Shown here: one piece after another, positions 1 to 4,830 of the stretch
Numbering within the stretch: the stretch's first letter is position 1
Layout of the letters: the number at the start of each line of letters is the position of its first letter
Origin: a virus
Lineage: Duplodnaviria; Heunggongvirae; Uroviricota; Caudoviricetes
Reading direction: 5' to 3' (one strand)
Virus record (IMG/VR): IMGVR_UViG_2563366878_000014
DNA: 4,830 nt
Made by a program: the position numbers and the translations under genes
The notes under the pieces: model-generated
The model's input: only the letters and a program-made list of their open reading frames with translations
Databases searched by the model: none
Told to the model about the DNA's origin: nothing

Positions 1-1287
1 GATTCACTGGATATGATTACGGGCTTTTCGCCGTCATATAAAAAAATTGTTATTGGTGATGATGAAATAACGATGCCTGGCGACAAGGTTGTTAAGTTTA
101 AACGCGCATCAACTGCCACATATATCAATAAATCAGGCGTATTTAGTGTTGCTAAAATTGATGAGCCACGATTTGAAAAAGAAGGTTTATTGATTGAAGG
201 ACAGCGCACTAACTATTTTGTTAAATCCAATACTCCCGCTGAATGGACGAGTACCAGCAATATCGATAAAACTAATAATGGTGTTGATGAATTTGGTTTT
301 TCATATGCCAAAATGCGAACAAAAGATAATATGACAGGACAATCATCTGCACTTAGTCTGCATACATGCAGTGCATCCCGGGGGATTGATGTTAGTGGCG
401 ATAATAAGTATTGCACTGTTTCATGCAGGGTTAAAGCTCCTGATGGTCTTCGTTGTCGTTTGCGTTTTGAAAAATACGATGGGTCGGTTTATACATTTTT
501 AGGAGATGCTTATTTAACTTTCGGAACTCTGATAATAGAAAAAACTGGCGGAGCAGCCAATAGAATAGCAGCTACTGCAACTAAAGATCCGGTTACAGGG
601 TGGATTTTCTATGAGGCAACTATAGAAGCTGTTGAAGGTGAAACCTTAATTGGCGCAATGATTCAGTATGCGCCGAAAAAAGGTGGTATAACTGAAGCGG
701 GAGATTATATTTACCTTGCAACACCACAATTTGAAAACGGCGGATGTGCTTCATCTTTTGTTATTACGACAACTGCACCCGCAACCCGCTCCAGTGATAT
801 GGTGACGATCCCAACTGAAAATAATATCTATAATAGACCGCTTACGTGTCTTGTCGAGGTTAATAGAAATTGGGGCGATATTCCTCCTAATGTAGCACCG
901 CGTATTTTTGATTTTTCTGGTGTGCCACCTATTGAGTCAATTACATACGCTTTTAACACAACTGAGAAATATTACGGTCAGCTTTATATGCAAACTTATA
1001 AAGCGTCGACAAGTACTTACGTTTCTAGTGTGTTTGCTGGTCGAACTGATGTTCGAAAATTCATTGGTGGTTTTAATATTTATTCTGATGGTACTAAACG
1101 AGTAGTTTCTAACGGTGAGGCTACTAAAACTATGAAAACGGAGTGGACGGGCGTAAAAACACGGACCTTTATTCGAATTGGAGGTCAAGCCACATCGGGA
1201 ACTCGTCATCTATTCGGCCATTTGAGAAATCTTCGTCTCTGGCATAAAGAATTAACTGATGCGCAAATGGGGGAGAGTATTAAATGA
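1..1287 (+). CDS. Tail fibre / receptor-binding protein, C-terminal part (5'-partial; frame open from base 1, 428 codons in window). C-terminus looks like a lectin-type jelly-roll (LamG/ConA-like) domain.
   Basis: Frame 1 has no stop from base 1 to TGA at 1285-1287. The first ATG at 13 has no room for an RBS, so the gene most likely starts upstream of the window. C-terminal motif ...GTRHLFGHLRNLRLWHKELTDAQM matches my recollection of the typical end of LamG-like jelly-roll domains in phage fibre tips. N-terminal window segment RASTATYINKSG...DEPRF...GLLIEGQRTNY resembles the start of a second such domain (weaker). Genomic context is tail fibre (Tfa remnant and Pin recombinase downstream). Confidence 0.75.
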   Translation, partial: DSLDMITGFSPSYKKIVIGDDEITMPGDKVVKFKRASTATYINKSGVFSVAKIDEPRFEKEGLLIEGQRTNYFVKSNTPAEWTSTSNIDKTNNGVDEFGFSYAKMRTKDNMTGQSSALSLHTCSASRGIDVSGDNKYCTVSCRVKAPDGLRCRLRFEKYDGSVYTFLGDAYLTFGTLIIEKTGGAANRIAATATKDPVTGWIFYEATIEAVEGETLIGAMIQYAPKKGGITEAGDYIYLATPQFENGGCASSFVITTTAPATRSSDMVTIPTENNIYNRPLTCLVEVNRNWGDIPPNVAPRIFDFSGVPPIESITYAFNTTEKYYGQLYMQTYKASTSTYVSSVFAGRTDVRKFIGGFNIYSDGTKRVVSNGEATKTMKTEWTGVKTRTFIRIGGQATSGTRHLFGHLRNLRLWHKELTDAQMGESIK

Positions 1288-1673
1288 AAGATTTAACACT
1301 CAAATTTGCAGACAGGGTCGACTTTTCGGCCTTTATGGAGAGCATTGGCTATTATGATGACGAGTCGATGCAGGATGATATTCTTATTGACGTGATAGGT
1401 AATGTGTACAAAGAAACCGGAGAACTTACTGAAGATGGCGAGCCGGTATGTGTTAAGGAGGACGGATATTTTGTAAATGTGCGCATCATTAATGATTCGC
1501 AAATATCGTCATTATTCGATGAACACGCGGTTGCTGTTGAGCATCAACTCCGTAGCTGGATGTGAGGAAGAAAAATGGCTACATCGACAGTAATTCCTGA
1601 TGACATCAAAACGCTAAAGGGAGATGTCAGTAAGGCAAAGGAAGATATTTCCTCAATTAACGTAAAAGTATCA
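858..1673. repeat. Tandem duplication unit 1 (816 bp), identical to 1674-2489.
   Basis: Checked line by line against 1674-2489 and found no mismatch. Identical ORF pairs in the supplied track are offset by exactly 816 bp (908/1724, 937/1753, 1284/2100). Confidence 0.95.
1284..1565 (+). CDS. Hypothetical acidic 93-aa protein, translationally coupled to the fibre gene; candidate fibre accessory/chaperone (copy 1).
   Basis: ATG at 1284 overlaps the fibre stop (ATGA). SD-like GGGGGAGAG lies 7-8 nt upstream. The protein is D/E-rich. No family recognised from memory. Confidence 0.65.
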   Translation: MKDLTLKFADRVDFSAFMESIGYYDDESMQDDILIDVIGNVYKETGELTEDGEPVCVKEDGYFVNVRIINDSQISSLFDEHAVAVEHQLRSWM

Positions 1674-1679
1674 GGTTAA
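1575..1679 (+). pseudogene. Truncated N-terminal fragment (34 codons) of the 234-aa gene, created by the duplication junction.
   Basis: Same RBS (GAGGAAG) and ATG as the 2391 gene. Reads MATSTVIPDDIKTLKGDVSKAKEDISSINVKVS, then the junction adds G and TAA at 1677-1679. Confidence 0.7.
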
Positions 1680-2103
1680 TAGAAATTGGGGCGATATTCC
1701 TCCTAATGTAGCACCGCGTATTTTTGATTTTTCTGGTGTGCCACCTATTGAGTCAATTACATACGCTTTTAACACAACTGAGAAATATTACGGTCAGCTT
1801 TATATGCAAACTTATAAAGCGTCGACAAGTACTTACGTTTCTAGTGTGTTTGCTGGTCGAACTGATGTTCGAAAATTCATTGGTGGTTTTAATATTTATT
1901 CTGATGGTACTAAACGAGTAGTTTCTAACGGTGAGGCTACTAAAACTATGAAAACGGAGTGGACGGGCGTAAAAACACGGACCTTTATTCGAATTGGAGG
2001 TCAAGCCACATCGGGAACTCGTCATCTATTCGGCCATTTGAGAAATCTTCGTCTCTGGCATAAAGAATTAACTGATGCGCAAATGGGGGAGAGTATTAAA
2101 TGA
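1674..2103 (+). pseudogene. Duplicated 3' fragment of the fibre gene (last ~143 codons, including the lectin-like C-terminus) with no proper start or RBS.
   Basis: Identical to 858-1287. The frame opens only after TAA at 1663-1665. There is no ATG with an SD; the ORF track start at 1738 is an internal GTG. Confidence 0.7.
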
Positions 2104-2381
2104 AAGATTTAACACTCAAATTTGCAGACAGGGTCGACTTTTCGGCCTTTATGGAGAGCATTGGCTATTATGATGACGAGTCGATGCAGGATGATATTCT
2201 TATTGACGTGATAGGTAATGTGTACAAAGAAACCGGAGAACTTACTGAAGATGGCGAGCCGGTATGTGTTAAGGAGGACGGATATTTTGTAAATGTGCGC
2301 ATCATTAATGATTCGCAAATATCGTCATTATTCGATGAACACGCGGTTGCTGTTGAGCATCAACTCCGTAGCTGGATGTGA
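2100..2381 (+). CDS. Hypothetical acidic 93-aa protein (copy 2, identical to 1284-1565).
   Basis: Identical sequence with the same RBS, carried inside the duplicated fibre fragment. It could be expressed by read-through transcription. Confidence 0.6.
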   Translation: MKDLTLKFADRVDFSAFMESIGYYDDESMQDDILIDVIGNVYKETGELTEDGEPVCVKEDGYFVNVRIINDSQISSLFDEHAVAVEHQLRSWM

Positions 2382-2390
2382 GGAAGAAAA

Positions 2391-3095
2391 ATGGCTACAT
2401 CGACAGTAATTCCTGATGACATCAAAACGCTAAAGGGAGATGTCAGTAAGGCAAAGGAAGATATTTCCTCAATTAACGTAAAAGTATCAACGCTTCAGAC
2501 TGATATGGACAGTGCAAAGCAGGATATCAGTACCAGATACACAAAAACAGAAGTGGATAATAAGCTGAAAAACAAAGTGGAAGTGAACGATCTGGAAAGT
2601 GGTCGTTATGGCGGAGATTTTTACCCGCTGACTGGCCGTGAAGCGTTTTATTTATGGGGATTGGGCACAACTACAGCGGCGGCAAATCTTTATCTTAATC
2701 CTGACCCTGCAATTTCGTCTGTGCTGCGGTCAACATCGTCTATCCGCTATAAACATTCAGTAGAGACGATAGATTCAGAGCACGCCGATCTCATTTTCAG
2801 GATGCGCCCTGTGTGGTACAGGTCGCAATGCGAAAATGACAGGCGTGACTGGGGATTCTATGGATTGATTGCCGAGGAAGTAGGAGAAATTGCCCCTCAG
2901 TTTGTTCACTGGCGACCAGCCAACGAAGATGATGCACCGGAAACCATTTCCAGCAATGGCCTTGTTGCCGAAGGTGTAATGTACGAACGTCTGGTTGTTC
3001 CACTGATTCACCATATCCAGAAACTGACTGAAAGAGTTGATGAACTTGAGTCAGAATTGAAGTTGTTATCAACTTCCCAAAGCGATATCGGATAA
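2391..3095 (+). CDS. 234-aa fibre-like protein: N-terminal coiled-coil-like region plus C-terminal domain resembling the phage intramolecular chaperone (Peptidase S74-like) domain.
   Basis: Strong RBS GAGGAAG 5 nt before the ATG. C-terminal motifs LIFRMRPVWYR, GLIAEEVGEIAPQFV and VMYERLVVPLIHHIQKLTERVDELESEL match my recollection of the S74 chaperone-domain consensus (LRPVxY / GxIAQEV..P / Y..LVPLL..IKEL). Confidence 0.8.
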   Translation: MATSTVIPDDIKTLKGDVSKAKEDISSINVKVSTLQTDMDSAKQDISTRYTKTEVDNKLKNKVEVNDLESGRYGGDFYPLTGREAFYLWGLGTTTAAANLYLNPDPAISSVLRSTSSIRYKHSVETIDSEHADLIFRMRPVWYRSQCENDRRDWGFYGLIAEEVGEIAPQFVHWRPANEDDAPETISSNGLVAEGVMYERLVVPLIHHIQKLTERVDELESELKLLSTSQSDIG

Positions 3096-3105
3096 AGGAG
3101 GAGTA

Positions 3106-3399
3106 ATGGATATAACACCTTTTCTTCATGCGCTTTGTGCTGTGGCTGCGCAGGTAATGATTGGTCTTTTTACCGGAAACTGGGTTTACGGGGCGATAGC
3201 CGGTTGTACGTTCTTCATTGCGCGTGAACACACCCAGGCAGAATATCGCTGGATTGAAATGTTCGGGCATGGCAAGCGGATTAACATGCCGTGGTGGGGC
3301 GGTTTTGATCCGCGTGTTTGGGATGTGGCAAGCCTGATAGATTTTGCTGTGCCGGTGGTGGCGTGTCTGCTGGTCTGGCTGTTGGTTAATCGTGGGTGA
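3106..3399 (+). CDS. 97-aa small predicted inner-membrane protein (2-3 hydrophobic helices), hypothetical; possible moron.
   Basis: Strong RBS AAGGAGG 4-5 nt before the ATG. Hydrophobic stretches FLHALCAVAAQVMIGLFTG, WVYGAIAGCTFFIA and VASLIDFAVPVVACLLVWLLV. Spot-checked lines are GC-richer than the upstream genes. Confidence 0.7.
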   Translation: MDITPFLHALCAVAAQVMIGLFTGNWVYGAIAGCTFFIAREHTQAEYRWIEMFGHGKRINMPWWGGFDPRVWDVASLIDFAVPVVACLLVWLLVNRG

Positions 3400-3409
3400 A
3401 AAAAGGTGA

Positions 3410-3529
3410 GCTGTATATGCAACGGAGGAAGAAACCCCGTTGCTGGAAGCCTGGAAAAAGTATCGGGTGTTGCTGAACCGTGTTGATACGTCAACTGCAC
3501 AGGATATTGAATGGCCAGCACTGCCGTAG
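3410..3529 (+). pseudogene. tfa: 3' remnant of a tail fibre assembly (Tfa-family) gene: conserved C-terminal 39 codons only.
   Basis: Frame 2 reads [39 protein letters not shown] then TAG, the C-terminal signature I recall for lambda Tfa / Mu U / P2 G-type proteins. An in-frame TGA at 3407-3409 sits immediately upstream and there is no start or RBS. Confidence 0.75.
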
Positions 3530-3605
3530 GGTAAAACATATAAATTCTATAATTAGATGTATCTTTCCATTTACGGCAAGGAAGGGGGCTTGGAAGACGT
3601 AAAGC

Positions 3606-3628
3606 ATCTCACACCGAGATTATTTTTT
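3606..3628 (+). terminator. Weak candidate intrinsic terminator for the + strand gene string (5-bp stem ATCTC/GAGAT, then TATTTTTT).
   Basis: Hairpin 3606-3620 followed by a T-run at 3621-3628. The stem is short and AT-rich, and the site overlaps the recombinase stop on the other strand. Confidence 0.25.
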
Positions 3629-4217
3629 ATATGTCAGGTGTCTGAAGTTTTGCTTTGGCTCTTAAAATGGTTTGCCGCGAGGTTTTGAATTCCCGGGCAA
3701 TGGCACTTATACTTACACCTGACTTAATTCGTTCGAATACCACCTGTTTCTGTTCTTCATTTAACACAGGTGGTCGACCAAAACGTTTCCCTGCGCCCCG
3801 GGCTCTTACTATCCCGGAATGAGTGCGTTCAAGTAAAAGGTCTCGTTCAAATTCAGCGACTGCTGAAATTACTTGCATCATCATTTTTCCTGTTGGACTG
3901 GTCAGGTCAATGCCCCCCAATGCTAAGCAATGCACTCTGATACCTGTTTCGGTCAGTTGTTCCACTGTTTTCCTGATATCCATTGCATTACAACCAAGGC
4001 GATCCAGTTTTGTCACAATCAATTGATCACCACATTTCAGGCGAGCAAGCAACCGGTTAAAACCAGGACGCTCACTGGTTGCTGCTGAGCCGCTAATGTG
4101 TTCTTCGATTATTTGCTGAGGTTTGATTTTAAAACCTGCACTTTCGATTTCCCGGCGTTGATTTTCGGTGGTCTGATCCAGAGTTGATATCCGACAGTAA
4201 GCAAAAATTCGAGACAT
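3627..4217 (-). CDS. pinR: Small serine recombinase, DNA invertase/resolvase family (Pin-like), 196 aa.
   Basis: N-terminal YCRISTLDQ with the catalytic Ser, central LDRLGCN...[16 protein letters not shown], and C-terminal GRPP plus helix-turn-helix are hallmarks of the Hin/Gin/Pin and resolvase family. Length and sequence match my recollection of E. coli prophage PinR/PinQ; I cannot tell those two apart without a search. Convergent with the tail-fibre genes. Confidence 0.93.
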
Positions 4218-4596
4218 AGTGAGACTCTATACGAAATTGGTGTACATATCATAATGCATATCCAAAAATTATTTCGCTTATTATTGCACATATTTGTATG
4301 TATACGTTCGAAAATAAACAAATTCGGATGCAGTCCCGTAATTTTGGTGTAACCCAAAATCGATTTTTTGAAAAATGGCTTTAACTCGGTTTGTTTTTCG
4401 AACTCCGGGCGGACTCGAGAAAGACGAATAATAGTGTTGTATGTTGTTTTAGCCAGATTTCAATTTGTTTGGTCTTGGAAAAGTGGAGCAAAAAGTTGTT
4501 AAAGTGGAAAAATGGTAAAAAAGTAGGTTGTTGCGGCATAACGTAGTTGTTGATATTTTTTAATGCATTGAAAAATTATTTTTCAGGGGGTGTTTA
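4218..4596 (-). promoter_or_regulatory. AT-rich intergenic region upstream of the recombinase gene; expected to hold its promoter, exact -10/-35 not resolved.
   Basis: 379-bp non-coding spacer. Contains the dyad ATTTTGG-TGTAAC-CCAAAAT (4341-4360) and three GTTGTTG repeats (4495-4552). A TATGAT -10-like hexamer on the - strand lies about 30 nt upstream of the ATG. Confidence 0.3.
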
Positions 4597-4830
4597 TTAC
4601 ACTTTACCATTTAAATTTTGGTTGTCTTTAAGAACTGATATCGCTGTTTGTAATAATTCTTTGTTATCCAGCCATGACTTTTTCTTTATGTTTCCTTCAA
4701 TGTAATCAAGCAATGTTCTGGTATTGATAGGTCTTCCCTGTTTTGCCACTTCCACGACAGCATCTCCCAGGATAATTCTGACTTCAGGAAGCTGCGCGGG
4801 GAACCACTTTAGGGTGTCTTTTGATTTCAT
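4597..4830 (-). CDS. ynaE: 77-aa hypothetical protein in the position of Rac ynaE / Qin ydfK (cold-shock-induced prophage gene family); start ATG is at the window edge.
   Basis: Complete 77-codon ORF from ATG at 4830-4828 to the stop at 4597-4599. Same strand as and directly upstream of the Pin-like gene, as I recall for pinR-ynaE and pinQ-ydfK in E. coli K-12. Symbol is assigned by position and length from memory, not by verified alignment. Confidence 0.6.
   Translation of the reverse strand: MKSKDTLKWFPAQLPEVRIILGDAVVEVAKQGRPINTRTLLDYIEGNIKKKSWLDNKELLQTAISVLKDNQNLNGKV

Follow-up and report, generated by a model that had tools for sequence, protein, structure and literature searches.

What does a gene for an invertase-like recombinase act upon when nothing beside it can be inverted? 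The question is raised by the 4,830-nucleotide stretch analysed here (the window; IMG/VR record IMGVR_UViG_2563366878_000014, Caudoviricetes), in which pin, a gene for a small serine recombinase, stands next to a set of tail fibre genes. The first-pass annotation had described an intact Pin-type recombinase and had proposed that its invertible fibre cassette was lost or overwritten when the fibre module was replaced, leaving an orphan or repurposed enzyme, or else that its crossover sites lie outside the window. The analysis points elsewhere. The pin gene is probably a one-ended relic of a Tn3-family transposon, and its product a weak or non-catalytic DNA binder that has no substrate at this locus.

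That the recombinase gene is intact, as first claimed, is borne out by an unbroken reading frame of 196 codons, whose product carries an N-terminal Resolvase domain (Pfam PF00239, E 2.5e-36) and a C-terminal HTH_7 domain (PF02796, E 3.8e-11), the domain pair of TnpR-type proteins of ~185-200 amino acids. The product is 100% identical to PinR of the Escherichia coli K-12 prophage Rac (b1374) and 99% identical to PinQ of the prophage Qin (b1545), and the gene lies in the same tfa-pin-ynaE/ydfK context. Sequence and surroundings thus identify it as PinR/PinQ, a recombinase encoded by lambdoid prophages of E. coli; both the gene and its arrangement were known before, and the lack of a neighbouring substrate has itself been noted in print. 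The label “Pin-type” fits it poorly. PHROGs names its family “DNA invertase”, but the product shares 38% of its residues with PinE, 36% with Gin and 33% with gamma-delta resolvase, while PinE and Gin share 79% with each other and members of the Din family of invertases are mutually ~60-80% identical. Its best match in the Protein Data Bank (PDB) is Gin (E 2.7e-29), gamma-delta resolvase is matched at E 2.7e-22, and overall it is about equally remote from invertases and classical resolvases.

The genomic setting is supplied by the matching genome NZ_OY754421.1 (100% identical), where the window lies at the right-hand extremity of a lambdoid late region that is complete, with the genes from terminase to tail tip, Lom and the side tail fibre ahead of it; the prophage abuts prfC. 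A 44-kb stretch of this genome (L001) covers 20 kb on either side. Inversion by Din-family enzymes requires two inverted 26-bp sites (12-2-12, with an AAACC-NN-GGTTT core), and no such pair was found. The 26-bp consensus TTNTCNNAAACCNNGGTTTNNGANAA has no match in the window at up to 3 mismatches. With up to 2 mismatches allowed the core AAACCNNGGTTT has two matches there, where chance predicts 3.06; with up to 1 allowed it is absent from the whole of L001, and with it any pair of hix/gix/pix-like sites within 20 kb on either side. Inverted repeats that bracket pin or the fibre genes are confined to chance-level matches of 12-28 nt, and an Rfam scan of the whole window returned nothing at gathering thresholds. 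The RefSeq annotation of the matching genome places no minus-strand fibre or tfa′ gene between the side tail fibre gene stf and pin, and it describes the adjoining tail fibre assembly gene tfa as “tail fiber assembly protein, incomplete, missing N-terminus”, in agreement with the frame translation. On all of these points (the absent sites, the absent opposite-strand cassette, the tfa remnant) the first-pass annotation was right.

Its explanation fares differently. A degenerate invertase of the Gin/Hin/Cin/Pin type, whose adjacent fibre/tfa cassette was deleted or overwritten by fibre-module replacement, would account for a recombinase gene beside tail fibre genes, for the truncated tfa and for the PHROGs label. 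The same arrangement is found, however, where nothing has been lost. The window, Rac and Qin have a common module order (tfa, a 98-bp gap, pin in convergent orientation, ynaE/ydfK, ynaM/ynfT), and the same tfa/pin arrangement, gap included, goes together with intact stf and tfa genes both in the two K-12 prophages and in lambdoid phages that are viable, which indicates that the orphan state predates, and is independent of, the exchange of the fibre module in the window. The block from 3584 to 4330 is present in 2847 of 5426 complete E. coli genomes and also in the isolated phages PhiR63_1, 2H10, Tritos and mEp460_ev081. Orientation likewise speaks against a lost cassette: the 3′ end of pin, not the 5′ end, faces the fibre genes, whereas pinE of the e14 prophage reads away from its invertible P segment, and the layout typical of Din-family systems, with the 5′ end of the recombinase gene beside the segment and fibre/tfa genes on the opposite strand, is not seen here. 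The identity to PinE, far below that between PinE and Gin, the missing hix-type sites and the transposon-derived DNA on both flanks, described below, count against it too. Already contradicted by arrangement, identity, orientation, flanks and sites, this explanation is scarcely credible. To be without a cassette is the normal condition of the tfa-pin-ydfK module, and no hidden invertible cassette is to be expected at this locus.

The flanks of the gene, overlooked in the first reading, are what identify it. Downstream of pin lies a Tn3-family terminal repeat and upstream a decayed res (resolution site) of about 100 bp; taken together, window positions 3588-4297 align with the right terminal inverted repeat (IR-R), tnpR and res of a plasmid transposon at 83% nucleotide identity over 712 bp. 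Beyond the pin stop codon the minus strand reads ATCTCGGTGTGAGATGCTTTACGTCTTCCAAGCCCCC and ends at 3584, the outer edge of the transposon-derived DNA, and the tfa stop codon lies 55 bp outside that edge. Within the 712-bp alignment the repeat remnant pairs with the IR-R of the plasmid element, which ends in GTCTTAGCGTGGGATATTTTCCGTTTTCCAAGCGGACCCC, and it can also be aligned with the left repeat of the element (IR-L; 75% over 44 nt). It thus corresponds to the ~38-bp, GGGG-starting terminal inverted repeats of Tn3-family elements. The remnant is identical in K-12 Rac and Qin and is present in a second prophage lineage (L037). From this homology the product of pin is best placed, by descent, as a Tn3-family tnpR resolvase and not as a tail-fibre DNA invertase of the Gin/Hin/Cin/Pin kind, and the right sites to seek around it are of the res type rather than the hix type.

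Complete elements of this kind are common. Homologues at 78-85% amino acid identity abound on plasmids of Escherichia, Klebsiella, Providencia and Morganella and occur in Shewanella. The TnpR of the plasmid transposon (P0014) has the same length of 196 amino acids, is 83-84% identical to the pin product and has Arg at position 76; in five of six sampled loci its gene lies 160 bp from, and divergent to, the gene for a 994-amino-acid DDE_Tnp_Tn3 transposase. The element measures ~3.8 kb, is bounded by ~40-bp inverted repeats that start with GGGG (GGGGTCCGCTTGGAAAACGGAAAATATCCCACGCTAAGAC) and has matches in 1809 plasmid records. A Shewanella relative (77% amino acid identity) is accompanied by this transposase (84% identity) at the corresponding place, and in a Photorhabdus relative the transposase is truncated. 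Relatives at 77-84% identity thus stand beside a Tn3-type transposase, divergent across res, and window pin does not: tblastn with the 994-residue TnpA gave nothing significant in the window (best E = 1.0), no tnpA was found in the 44-kb locus, and IR-L was not found within L001. With tnpA beside its relatives and none beside window pin, the window holds a relic of the element and not the element itself. A search of the literature, incomplete in its coverage, found no paper that states a Tn3-family origin of the Rac and Qin pin genes or the Arg-to-Cys change described below, and no priority is claimed. As a separate observation, an identical copy of the Arg76 protein P0014 is encoded without a transposase directly downstream of a MazE/PemK toxin-antitoxin pair (L007:5273-6591), on a metagenome scaffold that carries colicin and microcin genes and is therefore probably a plasmid; stranded tnpR genes of this family are not confined to prophages.

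The res region was compared with the tnpA-tnpR intergenic regions of L004, L019 and L021-L023, and the upstream regions of seven relatives were aligned. Upstream of tnpR all seven have three collinear dyads of TGTMCGAAA half-sites, in the order site I (26 bp, consensus TGWCCGAAAnnG-NN-CGnTTTCGKACA), a 12-bp gap, site II (32 bp), TATAAT and site III just before the start codon. The 113 bp upstream of window pin are homologous to and collinear with the res of these active relatives, but their half-sites are mutated and the -10-like hexamer reads TATGAT instead of TATAAT. A dyad scan that picks up sites I and II in the active elements with 0-1 mismatch in 18 positions finds nothing in the window at up to 4 mismatches, and in L001 eight matches, all at 4 mismatches and against 6.8 expected, which leaves no second res. 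Transposon homology ends within or just past site I, with tnpA absent beyond, and the res regions of K-12 pinR and pinQ are more decayed than that of the window. The subsite assignments rest on conservation and on analogy with Tn3 and gamma-delta, according to which strands would cross over at site I, the one nearest tnpA, while II and III would have accessory and operator roles; site III is the least well defined, at 19 bp or, with the -10 box included, 31 bp. A promoter role of the -10 hexamer may likewise be proposed from its conservation. The cognate DNA of pinR- and pinQ-type proteins is a res site with TGTCCGAAA half-sites, and since the locus has one degenerate res and no partner for it, there is no resolvase substrate here.

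The active site has changed as well. The equivalents of Tn3 resolvase Y6, R8, S10, R45, D67 and R68 are kept, with Y7, R9, S11 and R73 present in the pin product, and the equivalent of D36 is Glu throughout the pin family; the catalytic Arg that corresponds to R71, by contrast, is Cys76, so that the Tn3 catalytic set of Y6, R8, S10, D36, R68 and R71 is incomplete. Position 76 is Arg in 115 of 120 representatives of homologue clusters and in Gin and gamma-delta resolvase, and the five representatives with Cys76 all belong to the prophage PinR/PinQ lineage or to its sister P0009. The latter is encoded in the second prophage lineage, is 85% identical in amino acids and shows the same tfa junction, the same repeat remnant and an intact reading frame. 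As Cys76 is common to both, the substitution predates the split of the two prophage lineages, which now stand at a synonymous divergence (dS) of 0.20. In Tn3 resolvase the R71A and R71K mutants give no resolution in vivo and cleave single strands at ~1e-3 of the normal rate, with binding retained (PMC2794168); by analogy, Cys76 probably lowers catalysis by orders of magnitude. The ratio of non-synonymous to synonymous divergence (dN/dS) is 0.40 between the prophage lineages, compared with 0.15-0.19 to the transposon copy, a pattern that fits relaxed but continuing constraint after the loss of the Arg, exerted on an Arg-independent function. Between window pin and K-12 pinR there are four synonymous differences and no non-synonymous ones, too few for an estimate of dN/dS. 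Further pinQ-like copies with near-identical upstream DNA occur on chromosomes of Shigella flexneri (L029:6001-6587) and E. coli (L030:6001-6583); at 57-73% identity in the best tblastn segment they look frameshifted or otherwise damaged, so the gene would not be maintained everywhere.

These observations suggest the following course of events. A small Tn3-family transposon (IR-tnpA-res-tnpR-IR) would have inserted downstream of tfa in an ancestral lambdoid phage and later lost tnpA and its left end, leaving the terminal repeat, the resolvase gene and one decayed res. A resolvase needs two res copies in one molecule, and with a single degenerate copy nothing beside the gene would be recombined. 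As a leftover Tn3-type resolvase with a changed catalytic residue, pin would never have had a tail-fibre cassette to flip. The helix-turn-helix domain of PinR probably still binds half-sites of the TGTCCGAAA type. The target of PinR would then be what is left of the operator-like res ahead of the pin gene, so that it would regulate itself as TnpR does in Tn3; on plasmids, the intact res sites of sibling transposons may be bound as well. If other invertible segments are affected at all, this would happen indirectly or with very low efficiency.

A number of points weigh against a catalytically weak relic of this sort. The effect proposed for Cys76 is carried over from Tn3 resolvase, a 33%-identical relative in which Ala and Lys, and not Cys, took the place of the Arg. 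A dN/dS below 1 indicates that the pin product is still under some selection and is not junk. DNA binding and autoregulation by PinR are predicted by analogy, and a generic promoter scan calls no promoter in res: a search for sigma-70 promoters and terminators across 3380-4830 placed no promoter inside it and no terminator between ydfK and pin. A further objection comes from experiments on PinQ. Overproduction of PinQ from pCA24N-pinQ was accompanied by 88% inversion of the e14 P segment, as against 26-30% in controls, and by protection from phage T2 (PMC12529663); if PinQ alone inverts that segment, Cys76 does not deprive it of catalytic competence, and it can use foreign sites. Finally, the family half-site TGTCCGAAACC and the pix half-site TCTCCCAAACC have 9 of 11 bases in common once the register is offset by a single position, which makes cross-recognition conceivable.

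The explanation to which these experiments lead is that PinR and PinQ are active invertases in trans, acting on pix sites in the e14 P segment and switching fibre-like genes to yield a chimeric protein that keeps T2 from adsorbing. That PinQ acts in trans to invert the 1797-bp P segment is reported by Kirigo et al. (NAR 2025; PMC12529663), who regard PinR as its equivalent; the inversion was seen in T2 survivors that overproduced PinQ, and PinQ was without effect when stfP, stfE or e14 was deleted (PMC12529663). To this extent the earlier suggestion of sites outside the window finds a match. The inversion data in the same study point, however, to PinE: in a pinE deletion 1.5 +/- 0.2% of segments were inverted although pinQ and pinR were intact, and in a pinQ deletion 22 +/- 3%, against 30 +/- 2% in the wild type (PMC12529663), so that PinE is what native inversion requires. 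Among the strains listed in that paper and in its Table S4 there is none that overproduces PinQ in a pinE deletion background, and neither an S11A control nor an assay of purified protein appears there. PinQ itself has Cys at the position equivalent to R71, is 38% identical to PinE and has a cognate site of the Tn3-family res type; in dyad register the pix and family half-sites agree at only 5 of 12 positions. Binding to pix is conceivable and correctly spaced catalysis less so, as far as comparison of the sites can tell. The numbers of genomes differ as well, the pin module being present in 2847 and e14-type pinE (at least 80% coverage) in 1154; with pinE appended to the window query, the number of places matched in NZ_OY754421.1 was seven either way, and in another genome it fell from five to four, so that this count is not robust. 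Given the dependence on PinE, Cys76, the low identity to PinE and the res-type cognate site, direct catalysis by PinQ is unproven, and PinR/PinQ as trans-acting invertase seems rather unlikely. The only functional study available did not separate PinQ from PinE, which bears on the anti-phage mechanism proposed there.

A second kind of activity in trans would be resolution. PinR might still be an active resolvase that resolves cointegrates or multimers of plasmids carrying a sibling Tn3-family element. It is 84% identical to a transposon TnpR, its recognition helix is nearly unchanged (SRQTILRAK versus TRQTILRVR), the element is frequent among plasmids of Escherichia and Klebsiella and has intact res sites, and the reading frame has been kept across two lineages. 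Against this, Cys76 falls at the residue whose mutation abolishes resolution by Tn3 resolvase, and sibling elements encode a TnpR of their own, which would make a chromosomal helper redundant; we regard such a role as improbable. A local invertible or excisable segment with non-canonical sites is less probable still, to the point of being negligible. In its favour, the scans were based on consensus and repeats; but pin and the fibre genes are not bracketed by repeats, inverted or direct, 44 kb contain no second res-like dyad or copy of res, collinearity holds in all of the 25 best complete-genome matches, an 816-bp duplication aside, and a published BLAST survey found inversions in e14 only, and not in Rac or Qin (PMC12529663).

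Of the earlier description, “orphan” therefore holds, in the sense that there is no adjacent substrate, while “repurposed” keeps some room. It is tempting to suppose, if tentatively, that PinR and PinQ are domesticated, catalytically disabled Tn3-family resolvases that are kept for DNA binding and not for strand exchange. Were this so, the protein could serve as a repressor or decoy on the res sites of incoming sibling transposons, or as a modulator that biases the PinE-catalysed inversion of the e14 P segment, and the reported PinQ phenotype would be indirect. The suggestion concerns a protein that is encoded in about half of E. coli genomes and has been named, and recently published, as an invertase. 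More generally, pinR, pinQ and many plasmid genes automatically named “pinR”, of which the one in a Tn3-pinR-Tn3 structure is an example (PMC9845883), belong with the Tn3-family resolvases and not with the Pin/Gin invertases.

Table 1. Features of the pin locus, in window coordinates.
Feature	Coordinates	Strand	Basis
tfa C-terminal remnant (tail fibre assembly)	3419..3529	+	Frame translation; RefSeq annotation
Right terminal inverted repeat remnant (IR-R), Tn3-family	3584..3620	-	Outward-in GGGGGCTTGGAAGACGTAAAGCATCTCACACCGAGAT; outer edge of transposon DNA
pin gene (PinR allele), small serine recombinase, from Tn3-family tnpR by homology	3627..4217	-	Resolvase + HTH_7; K-12 identity
Cys76 codon TGT, at the catalytic Arg position (Tn3/gamma-delta R71)	3990..3992	-	CGT in transposon copy
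Nucleophile Ser11 codon (= Tn3/gamma-delta S10), retained	4185..4187	-	Alignments with Gin and gamma-delta resolvase
res subsite III region with -10-like hexamer (TATGAT, 4248-4253), presumed tnpR promoter/operator	4228..4258	-	Collinear alignment
res subsite II, decayed: TGTGCAATA-N14-TTTTGGATA, active form TGTCCGAAA-N14-TTTCGGATA	4259..4290	-	Collinear alignment
res subsite I, presumed crossover site, decayed: CATCCGAATTTG-TT-TATTTTCGAACG	4305..4330	-	Collinear alignment

Several other features of the window deserve mention. The fibre region (13-3399) is a different module from stfR/tfaR of Rac and comprises the C-terminus of stf with a GTA/head-spike-fibre domain (NF048003, E 7e-17), a 93-amino-acid protein (phrog_1361), a 234-amino-acid fibre with a Peptidase_S74 intramolecular chaperone domain (phrog_3299) and a 97-amino-acid protein (phrog_1443) with no assigned function that is hydrophobic by eye. 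It stops just before the tfa remnant, which is consistent with the replacement of the stf tip and most of tfa by a self-chaperoning, Tfa-independent fibre. Within it lies a perfect tandem duplication of 816 bp (857-1672 and 1673-2488) that covers the 3′ part of stf, the whole 93-codon open reading frame and the first 98 nt of the gene for the 234-amino-acid fibre; every full-length gene is spared, and what arises is a fibre gene truncated to its first 34 codons and a second stf 3′ part that has no start. In NZ_OY754421.1 and the other best matches the matched sequence falls into two pieces that cover 4014 bp (4830 minus 816), so these have a single copy, and among the genomes listed the junction (1560-1790) is matched as two separate pieces only. 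The duplication could be real and recent, could have arisen in assembly, or could have been edited into the window.

Comparison with K-12 Rac and Qin (L002, L003) reveals sharp mosaic boundaries between 3530-4217 and its flanks: the pin coding sequence differs by 0.7% and the repeat and spacer by 0%, whereas res differs by 13.3%, the distal intergenic region by 10.8% together with a 63-nt indel, ydfK by 3.4-3.8% and the tfa remnant by 8-10%. Where the two forms of res differ, the window mostly has the sequence of the active transposon; it seems either that the K-12 res has decayed further or that the blocks have differing histories. Just beyond the transposon-derived DNA, in the ydfK-pin intergenic region, a palindrome (ATTTTGG-TGTAAC-CCAAAAT, 4341-4360) is kept with an altered spacer in Rac, Qin and L037; it may bind a protein or have arisen by chance.

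Set against known systems, the locus is closest to PinR and PinQ of K-12, with which it shares an identical repeat remnant, the same Cys76 and the same gene order. With the 3.8-kb plasmid transposon (tnpA-res-tnpR) the 83% nucleotide identity extends across IR-R, the whole gene and res, while tnpA and IR-L are missing from the window, the res half-sites are mutated and Arg76 has become Cys. The Tn3 and gamma-delta resolvases (PDB 1GDT, 1ZR4) are assigned by sequence to the same fold family at only 33% identity. Their res consists of three dimer-binding subsites between tnpA and tnpR, an arrangement found also in the active relatives, with the difference that site I measures 28 bp there and 26 bp (12-2-12) in the relatives of pin; the gamma-delta half-site is TGTCCGATAA, which the half-site TGTCCGAAA resembles. 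Gin, Hin, Cin and PinE, finally, are likewise small serine recombinases with Resolvase and HTH_7 domains encoded beside phage tail fibre genes, and from these window pin is set apart by an identity of 36-38%, the lack of hix-type sites, its convergent orientation and its transposon flanks.

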